Counted from the first letter of the whole stretch, positions 8,103 through 29,271 are shown. The stretch: DNA of 62,954 bases, filler included, from 8 parts of 8 records of this genome joined end to end with filler, not necessarily neighbours in it, one strand, 5' to 3'. Program-made: numbers and translations. Notes: generated from the sequence alone by a model not told the origin.

Positions 8103-9866
8103 TCAGAAATCTTTTCCCAGACGCCTCAGGGTGGCCTCCACGGGAGACAGGATGGTCTGCCCACCCTCTTCCAGTAGACGCTGCCGGGCCAGCAGTGAGA
8201 CATGGAGCTCACAGCAGGCCTCTCCATAGGAGATCCCCATAAGCTGGGAGATGATCCGGCTGCCCCTGTCCACCAGTTTTTTGTTGGTGGGATCCAGCTG
8301 TATCATCCAGTTCCCTCTGATCCGGCCCATCCCGGCCATGGCGGCGGTGCTCATGGTATTCAGGATGAGTTTGGCAGCCAGATGATGCCATAGGAAGACA
8401 GGGCTTTCCAGAAGCGCCAGGGGAATCGCAATGTCCCCTTCGCCCGCATCGCCACAGCGTCCGATCAGGATATTGATACGCTCCCCATCCGAAGGAGTCC
8501 GCGCCTCCTTATCCACAAGGATGTTGAGGAATACCCATCCTTCAGAGACCTTGCGGCTTTGATCCTCTTCCCGGCCGATCGTATACCGGGAGATCTCTCT
8601 CTCATCCAGCAGGGGGACGTTGCCGGCATATTCGGGAGCCCCCATATCCAGATAGTCCTGACGACTCCAGTCCAGCCCCCGGGGACGTCGCCGCAGCATC
8701 CGCAGCCAGGCCTCGGAACCGTCGTGTTTCGGATCTTTGGCAAAGGCCCAGGAGGGGGGGGCCTGCTCATCATCGCCGGGACGGAAGGGAGGGAGCATAA
8801 AGGTGGGGGAGCGCTCTGTGGTATCGCTGAAGATATCCAGGAGGTAATGCTCGGCCAGGTAGGTGACAAGCCCTCCCCTGCGGTAGACCTTCTCTTCCAG
8901 ATCGGTCCAGGCGGCCAGGCCCTCCAATGCCTCTCCCCTGCTAAGACTCTCCACCAGAAGGGAGAAGGACTCGGCATAGACCCCGGCGGAGGGGGCCTTT
9001 TCCCCCGTGGATTCCAGAAGCCCCGATTCCATGGCCGCCCCGACGACCAGCATCTCCATGGTGGTCGCCTGCATCCGGGTGGAACCGGTGAGGGCCATGG
9101 GCCCCGTGTACAGATCCAGAACGGTCACATCTTCGGCATCGATGACCCGCCGGCAGCGTTCCAGTCTCTCTCTTAAAAGCCCGGCGGGATTGTTAAAGAC
9201 GAAAAACACCTGACACTTTCTCCGCCTGGCCTCTTCGACCGTACCGATAACGGAGGAGGTCTCCCCCCCCTCGCTGATGGCGACCAGAAGATCCCCTTCG
9301 GACAGGTCCAGCTCTTCAACCTGACGAGCGCCGAAGGCCTCATAATCCTCAAAGTTTTCCACGGCCCTGATAAGGGCCCGGTCGCCTCCGGTCATGATGC
9401 TGCAGGCCAGGTCGGCCCGTTCCAGGTTCTCATCTCCCCCGGTCCCTTTCAGAACGGCGTCTCCGGGCGCCGCAGAGGCACGGTCCTCCCAGAACTGCCT
9501 CCACATCTCCTCCAGGATCATGCTCAGTCGCCCGGTGCTGCCGCATCCTGTGAAACAGACGCGCCTGTTTTCGCAAGCGCTGAGTTGGAAGGCCGAAACG
9601 AGGGATCGAAAGGGAGCGCTCAGCATGACGCGCCGGGCCACCGAAGGAAGATCCCTGTCCACATTCAGTATGGACCTGATGGCGTCCCGGCTGTCCCGGG
9701 CGGCCTCGGCGCTCATATCGCGGGTATAGGGGTGGGACTGTTCGGTGGGGATAAAGCCCAGGCGGAACTGACCGTCCTCTCTGATAAATCTTTCGGCCAT
9801 GCCTCGGGCCTGCGCCCTCAGCACCGGATCAGAAGCAAACTGGTTATAATCGTTGTTTTGAATCAT
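8103..9866 (-). CDS. Long SIS-domain protein, MurQ etherase / glucokinase-regulatory-protein-like (587 aa)
   Basis: PTEQSHP, GCGSTGRL, GGDRALIRAVENFED, TGPMALTGSTRM, KLILNTMST...GNWM...NKKLVDRG. Start reassigned to ATG 9866, which overlaps the upstream permease stop (ATGA). Confidence 0.75.
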   Translation of the reverse strand: MIQNNDYNQFASDPVLRAQARGMAERFIREDGQFRLGFIPTEQSHPYTRDMSAEAARDSRDAIRSILNVDRDLPSVARRVMLSAPFRSLVSAFQLSACENRRVCFTGCGSTGRLSMILEEMWRQFWEDRASAAPGDAVLKGTGGDENLERADLACSIMTGGDRALIRAVENFEDYEAFGARQVEELDLSEGDLLVAISEGGETSSVIGTVEEARRRKCQVFFVFNNPAGLLRERLERCRRVIDAEDVTVLDLYTGPMALTGSTRMQATTMEMLVVGAAMESGLLESTGEKAPSAGVYAESFSLLVESLSRGEALEGLAAWTDLEEKVYRRGGLVTYLAEHYLLDIFSDTTERSPTFMLPPFRPGDDEQAPPSWAFAKDPKHDGSEAWLRMLRRRPRGLDWSRQDYLDMGAPEYAGNVPLLDEREISRYTIGREEDQSRKVSEGWVFLNILVDKEARTPSDGERINILIGRCGDAGEGDIAIPLALLESPVFLWHHLAAKLILNTMSTAAMAGMGRIRGNWMIQLDPTNKKLVDRGSRIISQLMGISYGEACCELHVSLLARQRLLEEGGQTILSPVEATLRRLGKDF

Positions 9867-10174
9867 TTTAAAGCTCCTGCTGTCATTCCTTTGATAAAGT
9901 ACTTGGACAGAAATATGTAGAGAACAAGCATAGGCAGGATCGCGATGGAGAGGGAGGCGAACAGAAGATGCCAGCTGATTTGATACTGCCCGAAGAAGAC
10001 GCTCATCCCCAGAGGCAAAGTCTTCAAACGGTCCGACTGGATAAAGACCAGGGGAAAGAAGAAGTCGTTCCACACGGGGACGGCATTGTAAATGGTCACA
10101 AGGGCCAGGGAGGGAGCCGTCAGGGGCATGATGATCTGAGAGTAGACCGTCCACTCCCCCGCTCCGTCGATCCG
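9863..10174 (-). CDS. Carbohydrate ABC permease (MalG type), C-terminal part
   Basis: EAA-loop remnant RIDGAG, WNDFFFPLVF, TLPLG, KYFIKGMTAGALK; truncated at the contig edge. Confidence 0.88.
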   Translation of the reverse strand, partial: RIDGAGEWTVYSQIIMPLTAPSLALVTIYNAVPVWNDFFFPLVFIQSDRLKTLPLGMSVFFGQYQISWHLLFASLSIAILPMLVLYIFLSKYFIKGMTAGALK

Positions 10175-11761: not shown

Positions 11762-12081
11762 GCTTATTCAGAAACCTACAGAACCCACATCGATACCGAA
11801 AGCAGAACAGACCGCCAGTGACCTACTATGACCCCCACAGCATGGAGCGTCATTCAGGACATGGCGTAAGAAGCTCACCCAGTCAATAAAAAAAGAACAC
11901 CCACGCTTTTTAAAAATACGAAAAAAACAGTAGAAGGGAGATTCGCTGATGATATCCGCTAGTATCTTTGCACTATTTGCGCTTATTTTATATGAAAACT
12001 GATCCGGAGACCTGTTATCATAATCAAAAAACTTGAATATAATTGTTTACCTTTGTAATTACTTATTGAATCGGAGGCTTC

Positions 12082-13290
12082 ATGTCAAAGCTTATCAACG
12101 CAGGACTTATCAGCATGGGAGGCTACCTCCCCGCCAAGCCTGTACCTAAAAATAAAAAAGACGATCTGGTGGGGTTCCTGAGAAAAGAGACCCTCCTGCA
12201 TCATGAATATATTGATGAAATCGAAGAAACCGGGAATATGCCCGGCAGGATAGAAACGAACTATGACGGCTGGGAGAGCCAGCCCTGGTTTGACGAGTGG
12301 GTGGCTCAGATGCCCCCCAAGAAGCAGGCCAATCCCTTTCAGGGCGCCGTGGAAAGACGACGGGTACCCATGGATCCCGTTTCCATCAAGAAGTCGGTCC
12401 ATCCCCATCCCATGATCTCTTCCGACGCGGAAACCCTGGCCGCGGCCAAGGCTATCTACAACGCCGGCATAGACAAGGACGAGATAGATCTGGTCCTCTG
12501 CTCCTCACTGGTCCCCGACCTGGCGGTTCCCCAGAACGCCTCGCTGGTACAGCATAAGCTGGGACTGAAGAACGCGGGAGCCTACAATGTGGACACCTGC
12601 TGCTCCTCCTTCATCACTATGATGGAGATGGCCATGACCTATGTCCGGGCCGGTATGAAAAAGAAGGTTCTGATCGTAGGGAGCTCGCTGGACTCCCTTA
12701 TCAACGACAAAACCACCTATTACAGCGTCTACATCGGAGACGGAGCCGTCGCCGGTATCGTCGGAGAGGTGGAGGAAGGCTACGGCTATATAGCCTCCCA
12801 TTCCCACAGCATAGGAAAACGGCACAAGGCTATCATCTTTAAGAAGAGACAGCCCCAAATCTTTATCCCCACCAATCAGGGGCCCACCTACGAACAGGAG
12901 TTCGTCACCTTCTACGACAAGGAGATGCAGCGGGAAATCGCCCATGAGACCCAGAACGACATCATGCGGGTCACCGATAAGATGTTCGCCAAAACACCCT
13001 ACACAGCCAAAGACATCGACTTCCTCTCCACGCACCAGCCCGTTCCCTGGACACCCGAATCCTGGAGGGAATGCCTGAACGTTCCCAAGAACAAGATCTA
13101 CCAGTCCTTCGAAAAGTACGGCAACATCGCCGTAGCCTCATCGGCGGTCAACCATCTGGAGGCCGTTGAAAAGGGCTTGATGAAAGCGGGAGACAAGGCA
13201 CTGATCGTCTCGTCCGGCGTGGGCGAGAACCATATATGTCTCTTCCATAAGATATCCCCCACCCTGGTGAAAAACGTCAAGCATGGCTGA
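12082..13290 (+). CDS. 3-oxoacyl-ACP synthase III (FabH/KAS-III) family condensing enzyme, atypical
   Basis: Cys-His-Asn triad motifs DTCCSSF, STHQP, YGNIAVAS; IGDGAVA; long N-terminal insertion relative to FabH. Confidence 0.85.
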   Translation: MSKLINAGLISMGGYLPAKPVPKNKKDDLVGFLRKETLLHHEYIDEIEETGNMPGRIETNYDGWESQPWFDEWVAQMPPKKQANPFQGAVERRRVPMDPVSIKKSVHPHPMISSDAETLAAAKAIYNAGIDKDEIDLVLCSSLVPDLAVPQNASLVQHKLGLKNAGAYNVDTCCSSFITMMEMAMTYVRAGMKKKVLIVGSSLDSLINDKTTYYSVYIGDGAVAGIVGEVEEGYGYIASHSHSIGKRHKAIIFKKRQPQIFIPTNQGPTYEQEFVTFYDKEMQREIAHETQNDIMRVTDKMFAKTPYTAKDIDFLSTHQPVPWTPESWRECLNVPKNKIYQSFEKYGNIAVASSAVNHLEAVEKGLMKAGDKALIVSSGVGENHICLFHKISPTLVKNVKHG

Positions 13291-13696
13291 GAAGCGGGAT
13301 AATGGGCCCGTCATAGATCATATCGCCATCAAGGTCTCCCATATGGAGTCTTTTGCCGCAGCTATGGAAGAGATGGGCTATCCCATGACCATACCGCCGA
13401 AACAGTACGACGAGGTGGGAATGAAAATCGCGTTTATGGGCGCCGAGGGAGAGAGCCAAATGGAGCTGTTCGAGGTGACCTCCCCCGACAGCCCCGCCGC
13501 CGACTCCCCCGAGGGGATGCACCATATAGCCGTGGCGGTGGACGATATCGAAACAGCCCACAGGCAGATGAGCGAAAGCCCTCGCTTCGAGGTAATGGGG
13601 GAGATCCGTCAGGGGGCACACTCCCGAATCTTCTTCTACCGCCTGGCGAGCACTCGGGCCCCTCTTTTCGAATGTACGGAGAAACACAATGGATAA
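13283..13696 (+). CDS. VOC-family protein, methylmalonyl-CoA epimerase-like
   Basis: IDHIAI, ELFE, GMHHIAVAVDDI and C-terminal LFEC.E motifs; overlaps the upstream stop. Confidence 0.8.
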   Translation: MAEKRDNGPVIDHIAIKVSHMESFAAAMEEMGYPMTIPPKQYDEVGMKIAFMGAEGESQMELFEVTSPDSPAADSPEGMHHIAVAVDDIETAHRQMSESPRFEVMGEIRQGAHSRIFFYRLASTRAPLFECTEKHNG

Positions 13697-14474
13697 CACA
13701 CTCAAGGGGAAGACCGCCCTGGTCACCGGCGGAGCCGGGGGCATAGGACGGGAGATCAGCCGCACACTGGCGGCCGCAGGAGCCCGGGTCATCATCCTTT
13801 GCCGGGATGCGGCCAAGGCCGAAGAAACGCTGGCTTTCATTAAGAATGAGAACGGAAGCGCGGCCTATCACCTTATCGATCTTTCGGATGCCGCCGACAG
13901 AGAGGCAGGTCTGAAGAAGATCCTGCAAGACAGCGACGGCGTGGATATTCTTGTCAACAATGCGGGGATCTCCGGTTTTATGGGCCCCGTAGCCGACACC
14001 CCGCTGGAAGAACTCGATTCGGTACTTGAAGTCAATTTGAACGCCCCCTTCCATCTGGCTCAGATGCTTATTCCGGGCATGACCGGGAAGGGATTCGGGC
14101 GGATTATCAATATAAGCTCCGTCGCTCCCCGGGTGAATCCGGCCTGGACCACCACTTATAACATGAGCAAGGCCGCCCTCAACGCCTTTACGGCCTCCCT
14201 GTCCCGAGAGATCGCCTCAAGCGGTATCACCGTAAACGGCGTGGCTCCCGGGCTTGTCCTTACAGAGCGCATCCAGAAAAAACGTGTGCCCGGCCTGGCC
14301 GCTGAAAGAGGGATCAGCGAAGAGGAAGTACTGAACGGGATGAAGTCCAAATCGGATACCAGGCGCTTGACTACGGAAAGGGAGCTGGCTGAAACGGTAT
14401 TGTTTCTCTGCTCCGACGCCGCGCGGAACATAAGCGGCGAAACCATCGAAATGTCAGGCGGTTACCAGGGCTGA
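13689..14474 (+). CDS. Classical SDR oxidoreductase (FabG-like)
   Basis: TGGAGGIG, LVNNAG, INISS, YNMSK, VAPG. Confidence 0.93.
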   Translation: MDNTLKGKTALVTGGAGGIGREISRTLAAAGARVIILCRDAAKAEETLAFIKNENGSAAYHLIDLSDAADREAGLKKILQDSDGVDILVNNAGISGFMGPVADTPLEELDSVLEVNLNAPFHLAQMLIPGMTGKGFGRIINISSVAPRVNPAWTTTYNMSKAALNAFTASLSREIASSGITVNGVAPGLVLTERIQKKRVPGLAAERGISEEEVLNGMKSKSDTRRLTTERELAETVLFLCSDAARNISGETIEMSGGYQG

Positions 14475-14517
14475 GAGTCCCTGCCGCCGGAGAAATAAAC
14501 AATAAGGAAGTACAGCT

Positions 14518-14967
14518 ATGGTAGATTACGACAAGTTTAAATCTTTTATGGAAGAGTATTTCGATCACTACAGCAAATACGCCCAGGATGCGGAGACCAT
14601 GCCCAAAATGGACCGTTTCTGGACCGAAGATATCAAGGTGACCGCCTATTTTCAACTTCCCGGGGGCGAGTACCCCTTCCGGATGCCCGATCGCCGTGTA
14701 TGGCAGGACTTCCTGATCAAGGGACATCTGACCATATGGGAGAACCTTACACCCACGGATATGATGATCGATACGAAGCAGTTGAAGGCCACGGCTATGC
14801 TGAATGTGGTAAAATTTGACAGAAAGACCGATAAAAAGCTGATAGAACTGGACGGAATCGGTTATTATACTCTTAAGCAGAACGACGAGGGAGAGCTGCA
14901 GATCAAGAGCCTGGACTTCTTTACAGGCGACGCAGGAACCTTCGCCAGCCTCTACACACAGGAATAA
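14518..14967 (+). CDS. SnoaL/NTF2-like fold protein
   Basis: 149 aa; N-terminal helix F..EYFDHY, FWTEDI, then alternating beta-strand pattern ending in LQIKSLDFF; AAGGA RBS. Confidence 0.6.
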   Translation: MVDYDKFKSFMEEYFDHYSKYAQDAETMPKMDRFWTEDIKVTAYFQLPGGEYPFRMPDRRVWQDFLIKGHLTIWENLTPTDMMIDTKQLKATAMLNVVKFDRKTDKKLIELDGIGYYTLKQNDEGELQIKSLDFFTGDAGTFASLYTQE

Positions 14968-15023
14968 GAATACCAGGCGGCCCCTCACAGGGCTGTCTAT
15001 AGCATGGAAATAGGAGAGAGCAG

Positions 15024-15461
15024 ATGAGCACGAAAGCCACAATCGTTACCGGTGTTATCGGAGAGGATGTCCATGTAACGGGCATCAGGATTCTGGAACA
15101 CGCCCTGCGCAGCGACGGATTCGATATACACTCCCTGGGAATCCACAACTCCCAGGAGGACTTCGTCGCCAAAGCGAAGGAAGTGGGCGCCGACGCCATC
15201 CTGATCTCCTCTCTGGCGGGACATGCGGAGATGCTGGTTCAGGGCTTTCGCGAGCGCTGCGACAAGGCGGGACTGACAGACATCAAGCTCTATATCGGAG
15301 GGCAGCTGGTCATCCATGCCGAGCCCTGGGAAGAGACGGAGAAGCGGTTTCTGGATCTGGGATTTACCAGCGTCGCCGTACCTTTCAATCTCCCCAAGAA
15401 CGTCATAGCCGAACTGAATGACGACCTCTGCTCCAAAGAGAGCGAAGGAATAGGCGCCTAA
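15024..15461 (+). CDS. Cobalamin-binding subunit, glutamate (methylaspartate) mutase S-like
   Basis: Base-off/His-on motif DVHVTG (DxHxxG), ISSLAGH (SxL), YIGGQL; colinear with GlmS/MutS. Confidence 0.92.
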   Translation: MSTKATIVTGVIGEDVHVTGIRILEHALRSDGFDIHSLGIHNSQEDFVAKAKEVGADAILISSLAGHAEMLVQGFRERCDKAGLTDIKLYIGGQLVIHAEPWEETEKRFLDLGFTSVAVPFNLPKNVIAELNDDLCSKESEGIGA

Positions 15462-15503
15462 GGCGACGGCCAGCCGGCGGAAACCATTTCAGGAGACAGT
15501 CAA

Positions 15504-16946
15504 TTGGAAATCTCAAATAAAACCTGGTCGGACGACTATTTTCAAAGGGAGCGCGAAAAAGTACTGGCCCAGTGGCCAACCGGCGAAGACGTAGACCTGG
15601 AAGACGCTTTCGCCTTCCATAACAGCCTTCCCGCGATGCAGAATGCGGCCCGCAAGGTCCTGAAGGCCCGGGCCGAAGGAAAGACCCTTCTCTGCCCCTC
15701 TCTGGGATCGGATACGGTGGAAAACCATAAGTCCCTTCTCCTTCATATGCAGGAGAAAGGGGAAGCCGATATCCTGACCTCCTACATAGACAGCCTGACC
15801 CGTAACTGCCGTTTCGAGATGGCAAGCCAGGGACTGATGCGCGCCGAAGCCTCGGGTCGTCCCGTATTGAATGGATTCCCTTTTGTCGTGCACGGCGTGG
15901 AAAAGGCGCGGGAGGTCATCCGGGCGGTCAAGCTGCCGTCCCTCCTCTTCGGCCCCACCCCCGACGCCAGACTCACCCATGAGATAGGTCTGGCCGGCGG
16001 TCAGAGCGGTTACTCCGGAGGCCCCCTGATATCCTTTTTCAATTACACAAAGGACGTCCGTCCCGAACAGATCATCCATAACTTCCAGTATGTGAACAGG
16101 TTGATGGGCTGTTACGAGAAGGCGGGAATCCCCATACTCTATTGCGTCAGCGGAGCCATGCCCTCCATCAGCCCTCCCTCGCTGATGATCGTTCCCGAGA
16201 TCATCGAGGTTCTTATAGCCGCAGGCCAGGGGGTCAAACACGTACAGCTGAACAACTGGCTCCAGGGCCACCTCGTACAGGATCTGGCCTATATAAAAAT
16301 ATTCAAGAAAATGGCCGATCACTATCTGAGGGAACTGGGATTCGGCGATGTGGAAACCACGACCTACAGCGTCAGCCCCACGGGACGCTTCCCTGTGGAG
16401 ACGGAAAGGGTTTACGCTCTGATCTCCCACTTCACAATGATAGGGATCCTGGGAGGGGTACAGGTCTGCGGTTCGAGAACCATAGACGAGGCCCTCCACA
16501 TCCCCACTCCCGAAGGTTCGGCAAACAGCTTCCGGAACGCCCGGATGTTCCTCAACATGCTCCAGCCCCAGGGCTTCGATGTCTCTCAAAACAAAGCCGT
16601 GGAGGCGGAAGCGGAGATAATGGAGCGGGAAGTCCGCTGTATGATGGACGCCATCCTGGAACTGGGAAAGGGCGACATTGTCAAGGGAACGGTAGCCGCC
16701 GTGGACAACGGCATGATGGATCAGCCCTATTCGACCTCCCAGCTGGTGAAGGGACAGGTTTTGGGAGTGAAGGACGATACGGGGGCCGCCAGGTACTTCG
16801 ATTTCGGCAGCCTCCCCCTTTCCGAGGATATAAAGGATTTTCACCGGGAGAAGGTAGGGGCCAGGGAAAAGGTTCTGGGCGAAAAAGTGGGATACGAGAC
16901 CATCATCGCCGACATGACAGCCATAAGCTCGGGCAGTATTCTTTGA
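15504..16946 (+). CDS. Glutamate (methylaspartate) mutase E-like catalytic subunit with remodelled substrate site
   Basis: QWPTG..VDL, IDSLTR, LNGFP, TPDARL, DEA..IPT, LELGKGD, ARY.DFG.LP are colinear with GlmE; TTG start behind AGGAG. Confidence 0.9.
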   Translation: MEISNKTWSDDYFQREREKVLAQWPTGEDVDLEDAFAFHNSLPAMQNAARKVLKARAEGKTLLCPSLGSDTVENHKSLLLHMQEKGEADILTSYIDSLTRNCRFEMASQGLMRAEASGRPVLNGFPFVVHGVEKAREVIRAVKLPSLLFGPTPDARLTHEIGLAGGQSGYSGGPLISFFNYTKDVRPEQIIHNFQYVNRLMGCYEKAGIPILYCVSGAMPSISPPSLMIVPEIIEVLIAAGQGVKHVQLNNWLQGHLVQDLAYIKIFKKMADHYLRELGFGDVETTTYSVSPTGRFPVETERVYALISHFTMIGILGGVQVCGSRTIDEALHIPTPEGSANSFRNARMFLNMLQPQGFDVSQNKAVEAEAEIMEREVRCMMDAILELGKGDIVKGTVAAVDNGMMDQPYSTSQLVKGQVLGVKDDTGAARYFDFGSLPLSEDIKDFHREKVGAREKVLGEKVGYETIIADMTAISSGSIL

Positions 16947-16982: not shown

Positions 16983-17411
16983 ATGTTTGTTCTGGACAAC
17001 TGCGTTTACTATATAGCCTCACTGGGACTGAAGAAGGTAACCGACTCTTATAACGATACCATCAAGTCCTTCGGGGCCACCCGTGTCCAGTGGATAGCCC
17101 TCTACTATATCGAGAAGTCCGAGGGAATCAGCCAGTCGGCCCTGGCAGAGATGATGCACTCCCAGGAGACCACCATCGCCCGCCTGGTCGGCAGACTGGT
17201 AAAGAACGGTCTTGTGGAGCGGAGGACCGACAGGGAAGACCGCAGGGCGGTAAAGCTCTACTGCACCGACGAGGGGCATGCCCTGTACCAGCGACTGCTC
17301 CCCGTCTGCAACGGCTTCTATCAGAAAATCATCAGAGACATACCTCAGGACGAGCTGGACGTGTTCCGTTCGGTCCTTGACCGCCTGGTCGATAACAGCC
17401 GAAAAGATTAA
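16983..17411 (+). CDS. MarR-family transcriptional regulator
   Basis: TRVQWIAL, SQSALA, TIARLVGRLVKNGLVER..DREDRR..KLYCTDEG. Confidence 0.92.
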   Translation: MFVLDNCVYYIASLGLKKVTDSYNDTIKSFGATRVQWIALYYIEKSEGISQSALAEMMHSQETTIARLVGRLVKNGLVERRTDREDRRAVKLYCTDEGHALYQRLLPVCNGFYQKIIRDIPQDELDVFRSVLDRLVDNSRKD

Positions 17412-17495: not shown

Positions 17496-17930
17496 ATGAA
17501 ACTGTCTACAAAGTCCAGATACGCGGCCCGCTTGATGGTCAATCTGGCATGGGAATACGAACAGGGGCCGGTACAGCTGAATGAGATAGCCCGGAGGGAA
17601 GAGATCTCTGAGAAGTATCTGAGCCAGATCGTTATAACACTCAGAGGCGCCGGACTCATACAGTCCGTAAGAGGAGCCAGAGGGGGCTATCTTCTCGGGA
17701 AGAGGCCTTCGGATATATCCCTGGCGGATATCGTCGGGGTAATGGAAGGGGGACTGAATATTGTAGACTGTCTGGAGCAGGATCCCCGATGCGGCCGATC
17801 GGATTCCTGCATAACGCGCTACGTCTGGGACAGAGTCAGCAAGGCCGTGCGAGAAACATTGGAAGATATCAGCCTTGAGGAACTGGCCGGAAAGGTGAAC
17901 AAGAGCGACGCTCCCATGTTTTTTATCTGA
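17496..17930 (+). CDS. Rrf2-family regulator (IscR/CymR-like, three-Cys motif)
   Basis: [29 protein letters not shown]-x6-C-x5-C. Confidence 0.92.
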
Positions 17931-17971
17931 AGAAGGATCCCCGGAGGGATCATCGCTGTGAAGGAGTTACC

Positions 17972-18895
17972 ATGAGCAGAATAGCAGAGAACATTACGGA
18001 ACTGGTGGGGAACACCCCCCTGGTAAGATTGAATAAGGCGGAAGGCGAAGCCGATATCCTTTTAAAACTGGAGTTTTTCAACCCCCTCGGAAGCGTCAAA
18101 GACCGTATAGGAAAGAACATGATCGTACGGGCCGAGGAAAAGGGTCTGATCAAAGAGGGAACGACCATCATAGAGCCCACCAGCGGCAACACGGGAATAG
18201 CCCTGGCCTATGTCTCGGCTCAGAGGGGTTACAGGCTGATACTGACCATGCCGGACAGTATGAGTATTGAAAGACGGAAGCTGCTCAAGTTTCTGGGCGC
18301 CGAACTCGTCCTTACTCCCGGAAGCGAAGGGATGGGCGGGGCCATAAGAAAGGCGGAAGAACTGAAAGGGGAGATTGACAATTCCATAATCCTCCAGCAG
18401 TTTGAAAACCCCGCCAATCCGGAGATCCACCGCCTGACCACGGGACCCGAGATATGGGAATCCACCGGAGGGAAGGTGGACATCTTCGTCGCCGGCGTGG
18501 GCACAGGCGGTACGGTTACGGGCAGCGGAGAATTCCTGAAAAGCAAGAATCCCGATGTCCAGGTCTATGCGGTGGAACCGGACGGCTCCCCCGTTCTTTC
18601 AGGGGGATCGCCGGGTCCCCATAAGATCCAGGGAATAGGAGCGGGCTTCGTTCCCGGGATCCTCAATACTGAGGTCTACGACGGCGTTCTGAAAATCTCA
18701 GCCGAGGAAGCCGGAGAAACCTCACGAAGACTGGCCAGGGAAGAAGGGATTCTGGTCGGCATATCCGCCGGGGGCAATGTCAGAGCCGCGGAGATCCTCG
18801 CCTCCCATCCCGAGAACAAGGGAAAAACCATCGTCACCGTTGCCTGTGACACGGGCGAGCGCTATCTGAGTACCTGGCTCTTCGACAACATCTGA
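17972..18895 (+). CDS. cysK: Cysteine synthase A
   Basis: [55 protein letters not shown]. Confidence 0.97.
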
Positions 18896-19057
18896 AGCGC
18901 TTTTACAGAATGAAATCCTGAGGGAAGGACCTCAGACCCTATACAGAAAATTCACCGGGGTTCCCTGCGAGCCTCGGTGATATAAAAACATGGGATATGA
19001 TCGGAAACATAGCAAGGCTTCTGAAGAGCTTTGAAAAGAAAGAAAGGAGGCAATCAC

Positions 19058-20353
19058 ATGCCATACAATGAAATAGAGAAACCGGGATTTGAGACCATAG
19101 CCCTTCACGGCGGACAGACCATAGACGCCACCAAGTCCAGGGCCGTCCCCCTTCATCGTACCACAGCCTATCTGTTCGACTCAGCAGAACATGCGCAGAA
19201 CCTGTTTGCCCTGAAGGAACTGGGAAACATCTATACCAGACTGGGGAATCCCACCCAGGACGTACTGGAGCAGAGGATGGCGGCCCTGGAAGGGGGAGCC
19301 GCGGCGCTGGCGTTGGCCTCGGGAACAAACGCCATATTCTATACGGTGATCAATATCTGTGCCGCCGGGGACGAGGTGGTAGCCAGTTCCAGACTCTACG
19401 GCGGAACCCATACCATGTTTAACGATATCCTTCCGGGCTTCGGGATAAAAGTGCGCTTCGCCGATCCCACCGATCCGGAGGCATTGAAAGCGGCGGTCAA
19501 CGTAAGGACGAGGATGCTCTATACGGAAACCATAGGGAACCCCTCCCTGGATATGGCGGATCTGGATATGTTCGCGTCCTTGGCGGAAGAGAATAAGATC
19601 CCCCTGGTAGTGGACTCCACCTTTACTCCGCCCTGCCTCCTGCGCCCTCTGGACCACGGTGCTCACATCGTCGTACACTCCATGACCAAGTGGATCGGCG
19701 GACACGGAACGGCCATAGGCGGTATCGTAATCGATTCGGGCCGCTTCAACTGGCAGGAAAGCAAATTCAAGCTCTATAACGAGCCCGACGGCGGGTACCA
19801 CGGGCTGCGCTTCGCCCACGACCTGGGAGAACTCAATCCTCTGGCCTTTATCCTGCGCATGCGAACGGTGCCCCTGCGCAACCTGGGCGGGGCCATCTCT
19901 CCGGACAACTGCTGGATGTTCCTCCAGGGACTGGAAACCCTTTCGCTGCGGATGGAACGACACTCCGAAAACGCCCTGGCGGTAGCGGAGTTCCTGAGCG
20001 CCCATGACGAGGTGGCCTGGGTACGATATCCCGGCCTGCGGGAAGATCCTTCCCACGCAGAGGCTTCCCGCTATATGAAGAAGGGATACGGCGGGATGGT
20101 CGTCTTCGGCATCAAGGCCGGCAGAGAGGCGGGACAGCATTTCATCGACAGCCTGAAGCTCTTCTCCCATGTGGCGAATGTGGGAGACGCCAAGAGCCTG
20201 GCCATCCATCCGGGCTCGACCACCCATTCCCAGCTCAGCGATGAGCATCTGAAAGCGGCGGGGATCTCCGGAGAGATGATTCGTCTCTCCATTGGTCTGG
20301 AGAACATCGAAGACATAAAGAAGGACCTGGATCAGGCTCTCAGAGCTCTTTAA
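19058..20353 (+). CDS. metY: O-acetylhomoserine sulfhydrylase / aminocarboxypropyltransferase
   Basis: [51 protein letters not shown]; start at ATG 19058 after AGGAGG. Confidence 0.95.
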
Positions 20354-20484: not shown

Positions 20485-22209
20485 ATGGACGAAGAGAAGA
20501 ATACAACACCCGATCTGCCGCAATTTTATCACATGGAATCTTTCAGACGGGAGGAATTTCTCTCCCAGCTGGGAAGTTTCACCCAGGTCCAGTATCAACT
20601 GTTCCACAACCTCTGCGACTTCTGGTCACCCGTCCTGGAGTATAACCAGTTCATACTGAAGAGCTCAAAATCCTTTCTGGCATCCAACAACCAGCTGGAA
20701 CTCCTGATGGACAAGCTGAAGGCCGCCCACATAGGCCTTCTGCAGTACGCCCTGATCGACGGAGAGCTGAAAGCCCACAGGATCATCCTGAGCGATAAGA
20801 ACGATTTCTCCTTCTATTACTATCTCTGTGAAGACCTTCTGGCCAGGCAGATCCTGAACAGCAAGCAGCCCTTTATGACAGAGAAGGCCTTCGATGACGA
20901 GGGGATAGCCCTGCCCAAGGATATGATAACGATCCTGGAATCACGGATGCTCAGCCCGGGCTTCGCGGAAGCATCCGGAGAGAAGCCCCTCATCATCGGT
21001 GTTCCCCGGAAAATGAAGGATCCCCTTCTTCTCCCTTCGGGCATGATCGAGGAGTTTATCACCGCCCTGGTCACCCATATCCGTTCAGAAATGACCAACA
21101 CGAGCCTGATGGAGTACCTGTCCAGAATTACGAATCGGAAGATCAGTGAACTACAGAAGGGATTGACCAAAAGGGAGCCTTCTTTCTGGATCCCCATCTG
21201 CCAGGCCCTCGCCGAGCATAAAGAAGAGATTAAGCTGCGCTTCAAGGGGCTCAATCCTCTGCTCTTTACCAGCGTGCAACTGCTTCAAACCTATTTCCAG
21301 AACAGCCTGAACGAGATAAAAGAGGCCCAGATCGTTGAGCAGGAAAAGATGAAGGCAAGGGATGAACTGATCAGGGAATTCAGAAACAAGGAAGCCTCCT
21401 GGACCCCCGTGACCCTGCTTGACGAAAGGCTGAAGGAAATGGAGGAGACCTGGAAAGGATTCCGGGAGGAATTCAGAACGGCGGCTTTGGTCAGAGCTGA
21501 GAACAAGGCCCTGCCCCCCCTGATCGTTATCAACAATATGCTGATTCATAAGGATTTCCTATTCCGCTACTTCACGCGGGAGACGGGGCTTCTCCGCAAG
21601 GACCTCTTCTTTAACTACCAGGAGCAGATGAGAGACCTGCTTCGCCGCAACAGGACCGAACGCTACAGCCAGTTCTTCAGCAGAAACAATTTCCGGGCCG
21701 ACATCCTGGATCAGATCAAGGACAAAGACCTTCAGCTCTGGGAACTGCTTCAGAAGCCGACCAAGGTGGCGGAAGCGGCTTTCCACTACCTGCAGACCAT
21801 AAAAGGAATCAAGAAAAACTCACGAATCAAGGACGCCCTCGGCCTCTATTTTCAGAGCGATATGAAGACCTTCAGAAACATCGACACCATGATGCAGCTG
21901 AAACTTCTGACCCTCTTCGAGCAGGCCTACAAGGAACTGGGCTGGTGGAGTCGCTTCATCCTCAGGATTACGGGCCGATACGATAGCTATATCGGCATGT
22001 TCTCCGATGAATCCCCTCAAAGGGAACCATACAGGAGTCTCTCCCGGCGGAAGAAAAGAAAACGGAGTCCCCGCATCCCCAAAGCGGCGAAGTCGAAGAT
22101 GGATCAGAGAAACTACTCGGCCAGGGAGAAGAAAAGAGCCTGGGAGGAGTTCGGCCAGGCCGTACAGAACGAGAGCCTGCAACAGCCGGAGGAACCCTCC
22201 CCGGACTGA
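20485..22209 (+). CDS. Hypothetical protein (574 aa, helical, basic C-terminal tail)
   Basis: Long open frame with codon usage like its neighbours; no recognisable motif. Confidence 0.75.
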   Translation: MDEEKNTTPDLPQFYHMESFRREEFLSQLGSFTQVQYQLFHNLCDFWSPVLEYNQFILKSSKSFLASNNQLELLMDKLKAAHIGLLQYALIDGELKAHRIILSDKNDFSFYYYLCEDLLARQILNSKQPFMTEKAFDDEGIALPKDMITILESRMLSPGFAEASGEKPLIIGVPRKMKDPLLLPSGMIEEFITALVTHIRSEMTNTSLMEYLSRITNRKISELQKGLTKREPSFWIPICQALAEHKEEIKLRFKGLNPLLFTSVQLLQTYFQNSLNEIKEAQIVEQEKMKARDELIREFRNKEASWTPVTLLDERLKEMEETWKGFREEFRTAALVRAENKALPPLIVINNMLIHKDFLFRYFTRETGLLRKDLFFNYQEQMRDLLRRNRTERYSQFFSRNNFRADILDQIKDKDLQLWELLQKPTKVAEAAFHYLQTIKGIKKNSRIKDALGLYFQSDMKTFRNIDTMMQLKLLTLFEQAYKELGWWSRFILRITGRYDSYIGMFSDESPQREPYRSLSRRKKRKRSPRIPKAAKSKMDQRNYSAREKKRAWEEFGQAVQNESLQQPEEPSPD

Positions 22210-25534: not shown

Positions 25535-26959
25535 TTACCTGCCGGTTGCGGCTGAGATATAGGCTTGGAGTTCCTTGTCCAGGGCCTTGTCTATGAGGCT
25601 GTCCGGTGCAGTGTCGATGATCTCCTTGTATTTTAGGTTTGCCTTTCTAATGATATCCTGCTCCTCAAGTCCGGACCATTTATCATAGGAGTTCCAGTCT
25701 GCCAGATCCGGCTGCCAGGCGTTCCTGCAATGCTCCAGGGTGGTTTTGTGAAAGAGAAATTCACTCTTGTTCTGAACCACCTCTTGAATGACCCCCAGAT
25801 ATTCATCCATGTCGGAGGTGTTGATCCCGTCCCGGAAACGGTACATCCGGGAGAGCATTTCAACGTCAAGGATGAATTTTTCATAGGAGGTGACCATGAG
25901 GTTTTCCAGGCTGCCCAGGGTATTGGACATGACATTGGTGCCCACCAGGGTGGCGGTGAGCAGGCCCTGCATGGTTTCATACCCTGCCTGATAGTCAATG
26001 GCTTTTGAGCTTGAGATGCCGCACTGGCTCCGGGCCGGCAGCTTGTAAAAATCCTTGACCATCTGGCAGCAGGCGGCAAAAAGGAGGGCGGATTCCGGGG
26101 AACCGCATTCCCAGGTTGCCAGCTGCATGTTTCCGAACACCGTACTGCCCGAGACAATGACGGGAAGGCCGGGCCGGGTCGCCTGGCAGAGGACGACCCC
26201 GCCTAGCAGTTCCGCGGCGTACTGGATCAGGGTTCCGCTGAGGCTGATGGGGGCGGTAATGCCGGACATGGCCGCCGGGATAATGACCATGGGCTGGTTC
26301 CATTTGGCATAGGTGAGGATATTCTGGCAGGAGGTTTCAACATAGGTCAGGGGACTGACCGGGGTGGATACGCCCCAGGTGCAGTAATGGTCCCGGAAAT
26401 ACCCTTTTCGGCCAAAGGGGAGTTCCAGCATGCCAATGAGGGTATCCAGTTTTTGGGGATCCTCTTCACCCAGGGGGGCCAGGATGGGTTTATCGGTGTT
26501 TTTGATGAACTCATAGGCAGACCAGAGGTCTTTTTCCGCCACATCCACATCCGATGGATTAATGGGCTCAAACCCGGCGAGCTTGAGCACATCGTAGTGC
26601 TGGGTGATTTTCTGGATGTTGGCCACGTCTTTAAGGGTGCCCGGCCGCCGGCCCCCGTCCAGGTCGCTGATGAAGACCTCCCCTCCGTTGGGGTTGACCA
26701 CCAGGCCGTCCCCGCCGATGGTCACGGAATGGTCCGGGTTCCTGGCCTCAAGAAGAAAGCTGTCAGGGCAGGTGGCCAGGCTTTTTTCCACAAGCTGCCG
26801 GGGAAAAAAGACCCGTTTCCCCGAGACCCGGGCCCCGTGATTTTTCAAAAGATCCCTTGCCGTTTCATTGAGATAGGCAATGCCGGTTTCCTCTAATAGT
26901 TTTAATGCGGATTCGTGTATTTTTCGGCAGTCGTCGCCGGTTAAAAAACGAAGATTCAT
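25535..26959 (-). CDS. MttB-superfamily corrinoid methyltransferase, non-pyrrolysine
   Basis: IHESALKLLEETG, ARNPDHSVTIGG, SPL, GITAPISLSG, GSPE, SSSKAIDYQAGYE, SYEKFILD; no in-frame TAG. Start at 26959 (GGAGG RBS) or 26971. Confidence 0.92.
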   Translation of the reverse strand: MNLRFLTGDDCRKIHESALKLLEETGIAYLNETARDLLKNHGARVSGKRVFFPRQLVEKSLATCPDSFLLEARNPDHSVTIGGDGLVVNPNGGEVFISDLDGGRRPGTLKDVANIQKITQHYDVLKLAGFEPINPSDVDVAEKDLWSAYEFIKNTDKPILAPLGEEDPQKLDTLIGMLELPFGRKGYFRDHYCTWGVSTPVSPLTYVETSCQNILTYAKWNQPMVIIPAAMSGITAPISLSGTLIQYAAELLGGVVLCQATRPGLPVIVSGSTVFGNMQLATWECGSPESALLFAACCQMVKDFYKLPARSQCGISSSKAIDYQAGYETMQGLLTATLVGTNVMSNTLGSLENLMVTSYEKFILDVEMLSRMYRFRDGINTSDMDEYLGVIQEVVQNKSEFLFHKTTLEHCRNAWQPDLADWNSYDKWSGLEEQDIIRKANLKYKEIIDTAPDSLIDKALDKELQAYISAATGR

Positions 26960-27019
26960 CTCTTCCTCCATAGGGTTGATTTAGGGGTGTTTGGGGTCGC
27001 ATGAATTATGGGGCCGGCA

Positions 27020-28255
27020 TCAGCCGGCAAGGCTTGTGAACAGTTCAGTCAGTCTGTCTGCATTTTCCTGGGCATACCGCCGCATTCTCAGGCCGTGCTG
27101 CATAATATAAATGTATTCGTATTCATTGCTCTCCCGGTGGGATTCAAAATAGCTGCGGGAGCACCAGTCGCCAACGGTCATGTAATAGGCGTAGACCTCC
27201 AGCATCATGGGCAGGGATTTCAACTCGTCCCGGTTAAGGGGGCCCAATCCGTCAGTCTTGGCCATCTCCTGCTGATAGGCGTTCAAAAAGATCATGGCTT
27301 CACGGTCCAGCAGATGACCGTCAGAAGCATAATTCCATGAAAAGGTCATATAGTTCAGGGCGCAGGCAATATCGAACATCCGGATATCTTTTTTGGTGAA
27401 ATCAAAGTCAAAGATTCCCGTGACCCTGCCCCGGGAATCATATTTGGCATTTCCCTGGTGGTAGTCGCAATGGGCTATGGTGGTCAGCAGCATATCCGGG
27501 TTCACCTCATTGTGAAGCCTGTCGCAAAGGACATTTACCCGGGGGAGGATTTCCGGAAAGGCAGCGGTGAAAACAGAGTGGAACATGTCGGGTTCACCTT
27601 TGAGCTGGATTTTAAACGCCTCTGCCCGCTGGTGAAATGATTCCGAGTATCCGGGGAAAAGTTCGAGTATTTTCGGCTCGTTTTTCCGGCAGTCGGTATC
27701 GTCAAAATCAATGCCGGCGTTGTGGAACCGGGCAAGGACACGGCTTAAGCTGTCCAGCGAGGTGTCAGTGGGAATATCAAGCCAGAAATAGGTGTTTTCA
27801 CCGGTAATGAAATCAAAAAATCCGTAATAGGCCGTGCCGGAATCGCCCTGATCAACGGCTGTGTATGTATTACCATCAATGTCCCGGACAACGCCTGCCC
27901 CCTGGTCAAACCCGGCGTTGTTGATGTGGTTGATCAGGGTGTGCTCCACCTCAATGTCCCTGGGATCAATTCCCTGGTAGTATTTTCGTACGCAATAGGT
28001 GGCTGTTTCTCCGTTTTCTTCACAGACCACCCCAAACGAGCGGTTTACGTATCCCCCGAACATTTCAAAAACATCAACAAGCTTTCCTAAACGATACCGG
28101 GTTTCCGTAATTTCCTTGAGCTGGGCAAAAATAAAGGATTGTTCCAGCTGGCCGCCGATGTCCGAGATCTTGGATTCATTGGTCTTCAGTTTTTTTTGAA
28201 TTTCGAAAAGCCTTGCCGGACGATATTTTTCAAATTGTAAAATAGAATTTCCCAT
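27020..28255 (-). CDS. APH/choline kinase/homoserine kinase II family phosphotransferase
   Basis: GGYVNRSF loop, VRKY, LARFH, catalytic HCDYHQGN, IFDFDF. Start 28255 (AAGGA RBS) or 28303. Confidence 0.88.
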   Translation of the reverse strand: MGNSILQFEKYRPARLFEIQKKLKTNESKISDIGGQLEQSFIFAQLKEITETRYRLGKLVDVFEMFGGYVNRSFGVVCEENGETATYCVRKYYQGIDPRDIEVEHTLINHINNAGFDQGAGVVRDIDGNTYTAVDQGDSGTAYYGFFDFITGENTYFWLDIPTDTSLDSLSRVLARFHNAGIDFDDTDCRKNEPKILELFPGYSESFHQRAEAFKIQLKGEPDMFHSVFTAAFPEILPRVNVLCDRLHNEVNPDMLLTTIAHCDYHQGNAKYDSRGRVTGIFDFDFTKKDIRMFDIACALNYMTFSWNYASDGHLLDREAMIFLNAYQQEMAKTDGLGPLNRDELKSLPMMLEVYAYYMTVGDWCSRSYFESHRESNEYEYIYIMQHGLRMRRYAQENADRLTELFTSLAG

Positions 28256-28365
28256 AATATCCTTTTCAAACTGTTGAATACAGCCCGTAAAATTAAAAGC
28301 CATATTGGGTTAATGCATACAATTTCCCTTGCACGTCTCCGGTGGGTTCGGATGTTCCATATTAG

Positions 28366-28381
28366 AGCAATAAGAATGCCA
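28366..28381 (-). promoter_or_regulatory. Sigma54 -24/-12 promoter for the kinase-MttB operon
   Basis: Minus strand TGGCATTCTTATTGCT (GG-N10-GC). Confidence 0.85.
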
Positions 28382-28739: not shown

Positions 28740-28755
28740 TGGCATGATTGTTGTA
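28740..28755 (+). promoter_or_regulatory. Candidate sigma54 promoter for the corrinoid protein (variant -12)
   Basis: TGGCATGATTGTTGTA: canonical -24 element, GT instead of GC at -12. Confidence 0.5.
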
Positions 28756-28830
28756 TTTTACCCCCTTCAATCTTCTCTTGCACGGGTAGACCTAATATGA
28801 TGACAACCCTAATTTAAGGAAACGGTTAAA

Positions 28831-29263: not shown

Positions 29264-29271
29264 GATAAATC

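Follow-up and report, generated by a model that had tools for sequence, protein, structure and literature searches.

The locus at positions 12082 to 16946 raises the question of which reaction is catalyzed by a glutamate mutase-like, B12-dependent pair of proteins that is encoded together with a condensing enzyme, an epimerase-like protein and a reductase. It lies in a stretch of 62,954 nucleotides, which was analyzed as a whole and is called the window here. ORF calling placed six plus-strand genes in one operon-like run, with 8-nt overlaps or gaps of 42–56 nt, just as the initial annotation had described. A promoter-like site (TTATCA-17-TATAAT, 10/12) precedes the first gene by 39 nt on the plus strand, at 12015..12043; it is a consensus match only, and 8 such sites were seen compared to 4.3 ± 2.1 expected from shuffles. 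RNA-library contigs from four libraries in four studies match portions of all six genes, and some span the junctions between the second and third and between the third and fourth genes. DNA carry-over is possible for all of these contigs, and they were taken as a weak hint of expression.

Co-occurrence in other genomes had been named beforehand as the test that could refute the grouping, and when it was run the genes were found together. Twenty related loci of the KAS type (those containing the KAS-III gene) had at least 3.1 kb of upstream sequence and were thus informative; 16 of them contain all six genes. The gene order is rearranged in two loci (L013 and L021), which keep the six-gene set. 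The set is carried by 6/38 genomes of the host's order, which is the order of relative G001, and is missing from the other 32. The same six genomes hold the gene for the NTF2-like protein, a variant GlmE (>850 bits) and a KAS ortholog (>720 bits), all within 5 kb, and none of these three was found in the remaining 32. The grouping is far beyond chance, and the operon is a single conserved module. A MarR-family regulator (16983..17411, plus strand, PF01047 match) follows the last gene after a 36-nt gap. It was found after GlmE in one other locus only (L001, 88% identity) and in 0/40 further loci at E ≤ 1e-5 (L002 and 39 metagenome loci). The regulator that was initially placed after the six genes is indeed adjacent in the window, but it is lineage-specific and outside the conserved unit. 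Two KAS-type loci, L008 and L009, add an O-methyltransferase and an ene-reductase-like flavoprotein, which matches vinyl phenol reductase best but, at 354 bits, stays under the cut-off of 600.

The mutase pair consists of a GlmS-like B12-binding small subunit (15024..15461, plus strand, 145 aa), encoded 56 nt after the NTF2-like gene, and a GlmE-like catalytic large subunit (15504..16946, plus strand, 480 aa, TTG start), encoded 42 nt further on. The small subunit scored 156 bits with NF002612, over the cut-off of 110, and carries the DxHxxG motif of base-off/His-on B12 binding as DVHVTG; the motif reads DVHVTG or DVHITG in 17/17 sequences (here and below, the window plus 16 full clusters). 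The large subunit matched PF06368 (380.9 bits) and no other Pfam family, and its score with TIGR01503, 392.7 bits, is marginally over the equivalog cut-off of 390.1. It aligns end to end with the epsilon subunit of glutamate mutase (6h9e_B, E 2e-102), gap-free over residues 1–220, and this alignment shows that the adenosine contacts G68 and N123 are kept. With the motif, these contacts and Arg100 in place, the original assignment as a B12 carbon-skeleton mutase is probably right.

The substrate pocket is a different matter. Its residues in the window are S66, R100, F149, S171, S177, Y181, R325 and E329. R100, the carboxylate anchor, and E329 are retained, and R66S, R149F, E171S, Y177S and K326R are replacements relative to glutamate mutase. 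According to an excerpt of one account of glutamate mutase, R66, R149 and E171 bind the glycyl moiety of glutamate, and R100 binds the acrylate half with Y177 (PMC10947579). At the arginine claw (R66/R100/R149) and E171, which bind glutamate in glutamate mutase, the window thus reads S66, R100, F149 and S171. The large subunit also had no match to the MCM barrel (PF01642) of acyl-CoA mutases. The signature S-R-[FLMWY]-[SAT]-[STA]-Y-R-E is common to 73/73 full-length homologs at ≥51% identity, so that position 149 is hydrophobic (F, L, M, W or Y) throughout the clade; the canonical RRREYYKE is confined to homologs at ≤39% identity. In the tree the variant clade is monophyletic (support 0.974) and the true RRREYYKE clade is separate. 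Since the mutase essentials are kept and all three residues that hold the glycyl moiety are lost, the pair very probably acts as a B12 mutase on something other than glutamate. Y177 is lost too and, therefore, binding of the acrylate half is only partly conserved.

The genes that usually accompany glutamate mutase were also looked for. There is no glmL between the S and E genes, and neither the MutL nor the MAAL family was found among the 56 window ORFs scanned (15 + 41). The initial annotation had reported both absences, and they extend to two near-complete relative genomes of ~5 Mb each (G001 and G002), in which neither PF13941 (GlmL) nor PF07476 (MAAL_C) had a match over cut-off. An MCM-family mutase (PF01642) had no match in these two genomes or in any of the 38 genomes of the order. 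Elsewhere in the clade, GlmL does occur at some loci (L008, L009, L024, L027 and L028). NCBI and JGI name the relatives "methylaspartate mutase subunit E". This name is probably wrong because the pocket residues are lost and GlmL, methylaspartate ammonia-lyase and an MCM-type mutase are absent from G001 and G002.

The KAS-III (FabH)-like enzyme (12082..13290, plus strand, 402 aa) matched ACP_syn_III and ACP_syn_III_C (PF08545 and PF08541) and stayed below the curated FabH cut-offs (141 vs 249 bits for NF006829; 134 vs 292 bits for TIGR00747). Its best solved relative is Staphylococcus aureus FabH (1zow, E 5.5e-25). Additional stretches lie close to its N-terminus and around residues 245–300, and the triad Cys174-His318-Asn348, aligned to 1zow, is intact in 17/17 sequences. 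The next gene overlaps it by 8 nt and encodes a VOC/glyoxalase-fold protein resembling methylmalonyl-CoA epimerase (13283..13696, plus strand, 137 aa; PF13669, 52 bits). H13, E61, H81 and E130 are invariant in 17/17 and, judged by motif, these four may correspond to the metal-binding positions of the epimerase (His, Glu/Gln, His and Glu). The protein scored 51.8 bits with the methylmalonyl-CoA epimerase model TIGR03081, far under the equivalog cut-off of 114.95, and the cluster gene is the top TIGR03081 match in both G001 and G002. The earlier label of epimerase corresponds to no more than a sub-threshold similarity to the epimerase model. The third gene (13689..14474, plus strand, 261 aa), with another 8-nt overlap, encodes a classical SDR with the TGxxxGxG motif (adh_short, 179 bits), whose best NCBIfam matches, 3-hydroxybutyrate dehydrogenase and FabG, are each below cut-off. 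The tetrad N116-S144-Y157-K161 and Arg39, presumably an NADP marker, are retained in 17/17, and the protein is probably an NADP(H)-dependent ketoreductase or dehydrogenase. The operon genes do not include the hotdog thioesterase that had been mentioned initially. The KAS-type module as a whole contains no thioesterase, CoA ligase, CoA transferase, ACP or transporter gene.

The fourth gene (14518..14967, plus strand, 149 aa), 43 nt after the SDR gene, was initially called SnoaL. Its product had no Pfam or NCBIfam match at E ≤ 1e-3, SnoaL models included, and no PDB sequence match; 51 representatives of its small unnamed family were found at E ≤ 1e-3 among 1.84 billion. The AF2 model (pLDDT 96.8) gave Foldseek matches with probability 1.0 and TM 0.6–0.74 to SdnG, limonene epoxide hydrolase (LEH), SnoaL-type cyclases and KSI-like proteins. 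By this model the protein has the NTF2/SnoaL-like alpha+beta cone fold, so the SnoaL call agrees with the predicted fold. In a protein atlas, a SnoaL_2 annotation covers 41% of one neighbouring cluster only. Y14, Y18, H70, D85, K99 and Y117 are invariant in 17/17. The family is not exclusive to the variant mutase, since G185 has a homolog with no SR-type GlmE nearby, beside enoate-reductase-like and KstD-like flavoproteins.

Three sister loci (L024, L027 and L028) share the mutase clade and the pocket signature, with W149, and contain TetR, TRAP DctPQM, GlmS, GlmE, GlmL, an SDR, an AMP-forming CoA ligase, and DUF35 with an SCP-x/BbsB-like thiolase. The ligase falls within a long-chain acyl-CoA ligase subfamily and the thiolase resembles BbsAB; no carboxylase is present in these loci. 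Three NTF2-like paralogs were found in each of L024 and L027, and none in L028. The sister loci thus resemble the window in the mutase clade, the NTF2-like family and an SDR, and differ in that KAS-III and VOC are replaced by the transporter, GlmL, CoA ligase and thiolase. The SDRs are only 33–35% identical to that of the window and may not perform the same step. The sister set, likewise uncharacterized, looks catabolic. Across the loci, KAS-III of one type is swapped for ligase plus thiolase in the other, and both make or cleave β-oxoacyl thioesters.

From residue identity and gene context, we propose that the substrate keeps the -CH2-CH2-COO- half bound by Arg100 and that the migrating group is uncharged and most likely a carbonyl, and we put the probability of this reading at roughly 0.35–0.45. 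The mutase step would be X-CO-CH2-CH2-COO- ↔ X-CO-CH(CH3)-COO-, where X would most simply be alkyl or H, so that a free 4-oxo acid would become a 2-methyl-3-oxo acid and methylmalonyl-CoA mutase chemistry would be done in a glutamate mutase fold. C2 of the branched product, between carbonyl and carboxylate, would be acidic and offer a setting for the epimerase-like VOC protein. The product would be a malonyl-type β-oxo acid that KAS-III could make or consume by Claisen chemistry, possibly as a decarboxylating nucleophile in the way 2-aminobenzoylacetate serves PqsBC. An excerpt of one study describes FabH-like PqsBC as condensing an acyl-CoA with a free β-keto acid (PMC4807248). In the KAS-type module, the link between a free acid and a thioester can be explained only if KAS-III takes such an acid. 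The NADP-type SDR would reduce a keto group, and the NTF2-like protein, with its invariant Tyr, Asp and Tyr, might catalyze an enolization-type step such as isomerization, dehydration or cyclization. The KAS-type module looks biosynthetic since it has no transporter or CoA ligase, and it might yield a small keto or hydroxy compound with a methyl branch. The sister module with TRAP, GlmL, ligase and thiolase might use this rearrangement for catabolism.

The alternative that survives best, though unlikely, is a non-glutamate mutase whose migrating group is not a carbonyl: vinyl or isopropenyl, on the pattern of 2-methyleneglutarate mutase but in a mono-acid; aryl, turning 3-arylpropionate into 2-arylpropionate; or a carbon with a hydroxy or amido substituent. 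An aromatic or terpenoid acid would then be what the operon processes. The change of Arg, Glu and Tyr to Ser enlarges the pocket, which is always hydrophobic at position 149, and NTF2-like enzymes such as the Foldseek matches usually work on hydrophobic cyclic molecules. The flavoprotein and O-methyltransferase of L008 and L009, the flavoproteins beside the NTF2-like homolog in G185, and the long-chain-type ligase and BbsAB-like thiolase of the sister loci point the same way. However, an epimerase-like VOC protein and a KAS-III would have no natural role, the substitution of KAS-III by a thiolase would be left without explanation, and we know of no precedent for an aryl-migrating B12 mutase.

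Slightly less likely again is a thioester substrate, with the pair as a glutamate mutase-fold analogue of methylmalonyl-CoA mutase that interconverts succinyl- and methylmalonyl-CoA (or -ACP, or -pantetheine). VOC would act as a genuine epimerase and KAS-III would join the methylmalonyl extender to an acyl primer. Reduction of the 3-oxo group would be the task of the SDR and dehydration that of the NTF2-like protein, in a module that builds a methyl-branched chain from its own supply. This scheme gives a textbook role to every gene and agrees with the intact KAS triad, and the three large pocket residues changed to Ser might make space for a pantetheine arm. The cluster VOC as the best epimerase-like gene of G001 and G002, neither of which has an MCM-family mutase, would also fit, but such a mutase is missing from the whole order with or without the cluster and, therefore, its absence favours neither reading. 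The VOC score is far too low for an epimerase equivalog, we know of no glutamate mutase-type enzyme that accepts a CoA ester, and a free-acid substrate is simpler for sister loci with TRAP carboxylate import, their own CoA ligase and thiolase, and no carboxylase. The initial suggestion that a glutamate mutase fold was recruited into acyl-thioester chemistry thus stands in part, as glutamate is very probably not what the enzyme rearranges; its thioester substrate does not follow, since the kept Arg100 and the sister transporter and ligase are both compatible with a mutase that works on a free acid. An ordinary glutamate (methylaspartate) mutase that supplies 3-methylaspartate beside unrelated genes is very improbable, since its model scores and database names are outweighed by the loss of two of three claw arginines and E171 in every clade member, the missing GlmL and methylaspartate ammonia-lyase of G001 and G002, the tight linkage to five non-glutamate genes and the separate RRREYYKE clade.

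With the carbonyl-migrating reaction preferred, the operon probably represents an undescribed B12 rearrangement within an undescribed pathway. The gene set had not been recognized from any described pathway, and our literature searches likewise gave no characterized pathway with these six genes. Glutamate mutase GlmS/GlmE of Clostridium cochlearium and C. tetanomorphum (1CCW, 1I9C and 6H9E) is like the window in its two-subunit architecture, in DxHxxG in the S subunit and in G68, N123, R100, Y181 and E330 (E329 in the window). The window differs by the five pocket replacements and its separate clade, and its partners are KAS-III, VOC, SDR and NTF2-like genes rather than those of glutamate fermentation, with relatives that lack GlmL and methylaspartase. 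Methylmalonyl-CoA mutase with its epimerase carries out a 1,2-shift of a carbonyl beside a -CH2-COO- unit, to which the proposed reaction is formally identical, and the window has a VOC-fold epimerase-like gene adjoining the mutase in the same manner. In contrast, the window barrel is of the GlmE type with no sequence relation to PF01642, CoA in its substrate is only hypothetical, and its VOC protein scores far under the epimerase equivalog cut-off. 2-Methyleneglutarate mutase of nicotinate fermentation is an AdoCbl carbon-skeleton mutase that acts on a free carboxylic acid and moves an uncharged sp2 carbon unit. Its likeness lies in this chemistry, and its substrate is a dicarboxylate compared to the mono-carboxylate proposed here. 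PqsBC and FabH-like enzymes share the fold and catalytic Cys of the window KAS-III, which has PqsC and PqsD among its solved relatives (1e-18 to 1e-12), is closer to FabH, and is set apart by its own insertions and its intact Cys-His-Asn triad.

Six genes in the same orientation (+ strand) encode a KAS-III-like condensing enzyme (12082-13290, 402 aa), a VOC/glyoxalase-fold protein (13283-13696, 137 aa), a classical SDR (13689-14474, 261 aa), an NTF2/SnoaL-like fold protein (14518-14967, 149 aa), a GlmS-like B12-binding subunit (15024-15461, 145 aa), and a GlmE-like subunit (15504-16946, 480 aa, TTG start). In the ORF listing, two of the junctions are 8-nt overlaps and the other three leave 43, 56, and 42 nt between genes; MarR is encoded at 16983-17411, 36 nt past the GlmE-like gene. 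The first three products were assigned with Pfam/NCBIfam. The GlmS-like subunit scored above its NCBIfam cut-off, and the GlmE-like subunit lay just above the NCBIfam equivalog cut-off (392.7 versus 390.1 bits). The 149-aa protein has no Pfam/NCBIfam family. It was predicted to form an NTF2/SnoaL-like cone (pLDDT 96.8), and Foldseek matched the model to SdnG, limonene epoxide hydrolase, SnoaL-type cyclases, and ketosteroid-isomerase-like proteins. Its family has few members: 1.84 billion proteins yielded 51 representatives at E<=1e-3. The protein atlas gave the operon products only generic names (KAS-III family, hypothetical, SnoaL-like). The six-gene operon seen in the initial annotation was confirmed, and the family assignments and predicted fold bear out its gene list. 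A hotdog thioesterase, which it had also mentioned, is absent from the operon. Its labels "epimerase" and "SnoaL" hold at the level of fold only. The best specific model for the VOC protein, methylmalonyl-CoA epimerase, scored 51.8 bits, far below the cut-off of 115.

A promoter-like site lies 39 nt 5' of the first operon gene. The terminator scan returned 7 sites versus 7.0 expected and is, therefore, silent on the operon ends. An index search found sequencing runs containing the window sequence, and contigs from four metatranscriptome libraries (four studies), with a likeness of at least 90%, cover stretches of each of the six genes. Single contigs span the VOC/SDR junction (13448-13753) and the SDR/NTF2 junction (14338-14624 and 14304-14740). 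These are assembled contigs with possible DNA carry-over, a two-gene contig is no proof of one transcript, and operon parts without such contigs are not evidence of silence. Expression of the locus is hinted at only weakly.

The GlmE-like protein and the epsilon subunit of glutamate mutase, whose structure is solved, aligned at an E-value of 2e-102 and without gaps over residues 1-220, so residue numbers carry over directly. Crystallographic work on glutamate mutase describes an "arginine claw" of R66, R149, and R100 around the substrate, with the migrating glycyl moiety of glutamate bound by R66, R149, and E171, the acrylate half bound by R100 and Y177, and the adenosine contacted by the backbone of G68 and N123 (PMC10947579). 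The alignment places S66, R100, F149, S171, S177, and Y181 in the window protein and retains G68 and N123. All the residues for the charged migrating group have been swapped for small or hydrophobic ones, and the carboxylate anchor R100 and the cofactor side are retained. K326 and E330 of glutamate mutase, which we take to be ribose contacts, correspond to R325 and E329, and the small GlmS-like subunit keeps DxHxxG. Y177 is likewise lost, which is a weak point of reading the acrylate half as conserved. The pair belongs to the GlmE and GlmS protein families by homology and, judged from its substrate-binding residues and genomic partners, falls outside the functional definition of a glutamate mutase.

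Next, relatives of the protein were compared. A search of 5.8 billion proteins returned at least 120 relatives of the window GlmE among the matches listed, and the 115 of these 120 that were at least 440 aa long were aligned to it. An eight-residue signature was read at positions 66, 100, 149, 171, 177, 181, 326, and 330. The pattern S-R-[F/L/M/W/Y]-[S/A/T]-[S/T/A]-Y-R-E was present in 73 of 73 aligned relatives with at least 51% identity, the canonical RRREYYKE was confined to aligned relatives at 39% identity or less, and several further signatures occurred at identities between the two. In a FastTree phylogeny built from these query-biased sequences, all 74 SR-type tips were monophyletic (support 0.974) with a small MRW/MRY group as their sister, and the 7 canonical sequences formed a separate clade (support 1.0). 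By these patterns, the variant GlmE is a clade and not a decayed gene. The clade holds at least 74 sequence clusters, and the source names of its members include Oceanispirochaeta, Spirochaetales, Aminicenantes, Acidobacteria, and Deferrimicrobium, as well as unnamed metagenome bins. Public annotation calls them "methylaspartate mutase subunit E" or hypothetical, and the label "methylaspartate mutase" probably misleads reconstructions of glutamate fermentation in these phyla. Further signatures within PF06368 are DRRECYKE, MRW/MRY.., GRR..D[HM], YRS..CYF, and RRR with altered 171/177 (listed relatives P0077-P0120; loci L047, L052, and L054), and each may represent another uncharacterised specificity.

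The six genes also occur together elsewhere. Two Oceanispirochaeta MAG loci from the genome-collection scan, L001 (GlmE identity 91%) and L002 (79%), carry all six in the same order as the window, with different flanks in L002. A metagenome scan with the clade alignment added 39 further loci, giving 41 in all, at which gene presence was scored by tblastn and signatures were read per locus. At least 3.1 kb upstream of GlmE was available at 24 of the 41, four of which (L024, L026, L027, and L028) are of a different cluster type. All six genes were found in 16 of the 20 remaining loci (L001, L002, L005, L006, L008, L009, L011, L012, L014, L018, L020, L021, L022, L030, L031, and L039). L023 has five of the six, the NTF2-like gene not being found by tblastn, and L017, L033, and L034 hold truncated KAS and/or SDR remnants. 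The latter three look like decayed copies; L017 and L033 adjoin reverse-transcriptase ORFs (scanned in L017, seen as mirrored ORFs in L033), and L034 adjoins AbiE genes. The NTF2-like gene precedes the SDR in L021, and KAS and VOC lie downstream on the opposite strand in L013; these altered orders indicate that the set survives rearrangement. MarR follows GlmE in L001 only among the 41 related loci.

Whole genomes gave a similar result. Three markers were used: the NTF2-like gene, a GlmE match above 850 bits, and a KAS ortholog above 720 bits. All three lie within 5 kb on one contig in 6 of the 38 genomes of the order of G001, the relative genome reached through L001 (G001, G002, G406, G407, G409, and G429). 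The remaining 32 lack all three markers, and four of these 32 have a GlmE-family match near 390 bits. Among 401 sampled genomes of the phylum, the high-scoring GlmE variant was found in G001 only and the NTF2-like family in two genomes, G001 and G185. The four next-best GlmE matches inspected outside G185 were canonical RRREYYKE, and the two in G185 were other variants. Co-occurrence in other genomes, on which the initial annotation had made its proposal depend, was thus found both at the loci and as linked markers.

The following residues are kept in the window and in each of the 16 full clusters: Cys174-His318-Asn348 in KAS; Asn-Ser-Tyr-Lys and Arg39, presumably an NADP(H) marker, in the SDR; DxHxxG in GlmS; H13, E61, H81, and E130 in the VOC protein; and Y14, Y18, H70, D85, K99, and Y117 in the NTF2-like protein. 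On this sequence evidence, the other operon enzymes are intact. The usual partners of glutamate mutase, which the initial annotation had found lacking on the contig, are absent more widely: a family scan of the window ORFs found no GlmL/MutL and no methylaspartate ammonia-lyase, and G001 and G002 (about 5 Mb each, the latter reached through L002) have a single GlmE-family gene each and no PF13941 or PF07476 match above cut-off. We consider it very probable (roughly 0.85) that the pair is a non-glutamate mutase within a functional six-gene module. The interpretation in the initial annotation is supported in part: recruitment of the fold to new chemistry is strongly supported by the replaced glycyl-binding residues and by the tight linkage to four enzymes of carbonyl/thioester chemistry, and that chemistry may or may not run on acyl-thioesters.

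Several other features were seen in the window. After MarR (17496-20353) lie a Rrf2/CymR-like regulator, the cysteine synthase CysK, and an O-acetylhomoserine sulfhydrylase; L001 has ORFs of corresponding sizes after its MarR, and these genes are absent past the cluster in L002. Corrinoid-linked genes at 25535-29193 and 54333-55661 encode an MTTB-family methyltransferase, a B12-binding_2 fragment, and a reductive-dehalogenase-like protein. G+C is low (0.30-0.42 versus about 0.55) at 28000-36000 and 40000-46000. The former stretch, possibly an acquired defence island, encodes a Cap4-nuclease-domain protein and has three large ORFs that match no Pfam family. Bordering the latter, a glutamate-synthase-like ORF (39237-40865, - strand) aligns to the Glu_synthase profile from position 162 onwards only and may be truncated or split. 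A 574-aa ORF (20485-22209, + strand) has no Pfam or NCBIfam family, and a 683-aa ORF (8103-10154, - strand) is SIS/MurQ-etherase-like only at residues about 195-372.

The sister loci L024, L027, and L028 carry a GlmE with 52-53% identity and W149, the signature being otherwise unchanged. Residue 149 (F versus W) was dropped as a marker of cluster type because L021 pairs W149 with the full KAS-type set. The sister set includes TetR, a TRAP DctPQM transporter, GlmS, GlmE, an SDR, a genuine GlmL (551 bits versus a cut-off of 475), an AMP-forming acyl-CoA ligase, and a DUF35 protein with an SCP-x/BbsB-like thiolase, and seems to serve the import and degradation of a carboxylic acid. The shorter fragments L025 and L026 have the sister-type GlmE and an NTF2-like gene, with GlmS too in L026. 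Paralogs from the window's NTF2-like family number three in L024 (616-1131, 1404-1847, and 5071-5598) and three in L027 (9004-9453, 11498-11854, and 11904-12329), and none was found in L028; the KAS-type locus L008 has a second copy (12991-13458). The multiple copies suggest several related substrates or stereoisomers.

Among KAS-type loci, L008 and L009 carry two further genes, one for GlmL and one for an ene-reductase-like flavoprotein. O-methyltransferase genes neighbour the cluster in L033 (6800-9377), L008 (16474-17583), and L009 (15146-16252), and a B12-binding radical SAM enzyme is directly downstream of GlmE in L033. In two different lineages, a dCache-domain methyl-accepting chemotaxis protein is directly upstream of the six genes (L011, 4144-5988; L012, 2413-4281), which could reflect synteny within lineages or hint at sensing of a pathway compound. 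L052 (G185:C67:9800-29700) encodes a fused GlmE-GlmS of 639 aa (ORF 67-1986, - strand) with the signature RRRPWYKE, adjoining a glycyl-radical enzyme and its activase, TetR, SDRs, an MFS transporter, and KstD-like and old-yellow-enzyme-like flavoproteins. A homolog of the 149-aa protein lies 17 kb from this fusion.

What the mutase rearranges may be proposed from its pocket residues and gene context. The substrate half -CH2-CH2-COO- would sit on R100 and the migrating group would be uncharged. A carbonyl would be the simplest candidate because B12 mutases need a migrating group that is sp2 or radical-stabilising. The reaction would be X-CO-CH2-CH2-COO- <-> X-CO-CH(CH3)-COO-, which would give every neighbour gene a role. 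C2 of the product would lie between carbonyl and carboxylate, a setting for an epimerase (the VOC protein), and the product would be a malonyl-type beta-oxo acid usable in Claisen chemistry by KAS-III. PqsBC, which is FabH-like, is reported to join an acyl-CoA to a free beta-keto acid (PMC4807248). The SDR is similar to 3-hydroxybutyrate dehydrogenase and FabG, and the Tyr, Asp, and Tyr of the NTF2-like protein would fit enolisation. Of the candidate substrates, we favour a free 4-oxo acid, with X as alkyl or H.

X may also be a thiol, making the substrate pair a succinyl-/methylmalonyl-thioester. The cluster VOC is the best methylmalonyl-CoA-epimerase-like gene in both G001 and G002, and neither genome has an MCM-family mutase. 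MCM is absent from 38 of the 38 genomes of G001's order, so its absence cannot separate the thioester from the free acid. Another possible explanation is a different migrating group, for instance an alkenyl or an aryl group; the pocket, enlarged where Ser replaces three large residues, and hydrophobic 149 fit carbonyl, thioester, alkenyl, or aryl alike. Weak points of carbonyl migration are the loss of Y177, the sub-threshold VOC assignment, and the KAS-type module having no thioesterase, ligase, or ACP gene, and we hold this specific mechanism at somewhat short of even odds. No firmer is the full scheme, in which an acyl-migrating mutase, the first of the glutamate-mutase type with a second substrate class, would convert a 4-oxo carboxylate or succinyl-type thioester to a 2-methyl-3-oxo (methylmalonyl-type) unit used by a dedicated KAS-III, as an undescribed anaerobe route to methyl-branched small molecules with a catabolic mirror in the sister loci.

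Few adenosylcobalamin carbon-skeleton mutases are known, and to our knowledge only one physiological substrate has ever been assigned to the glutamate-mutase type. The initial annotation recognised no described pathway, and the literature searched, which left subscription journals mostly uncovered, likewise yielded nothing on this six-gene set, on GlmE-type enzymes that use a different substrate, or on B12 mutases for 4-oxo acids (levulinate/4-oxopentanoate) or 2-methylacetoacetate. We rate the enzyme as part of an undescribed pathway, linked to an NTF2-like family without a name or known function. Since the SR-type clade keeps the radical machinery, has a rebuilt substrate pocket, and occurs in two conserved gene contexts, a new B12 rearrangement is directly testable with a handful of candidate substrates. 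If true, the other PF06368 pocket signatures would represent a family of undiscovered B12 rearrangements.

The two contexts differ in that the sister type has a ligase and thiolase where the window type has KAS-III and VOC. The thiolase would cleave and KAS-III would make the same kind of intermediate, beta-oxoacyl thioesters. The window system may work like methylmalonyl-CoA mutase and its epimerase, yet it is unrelated to that family.
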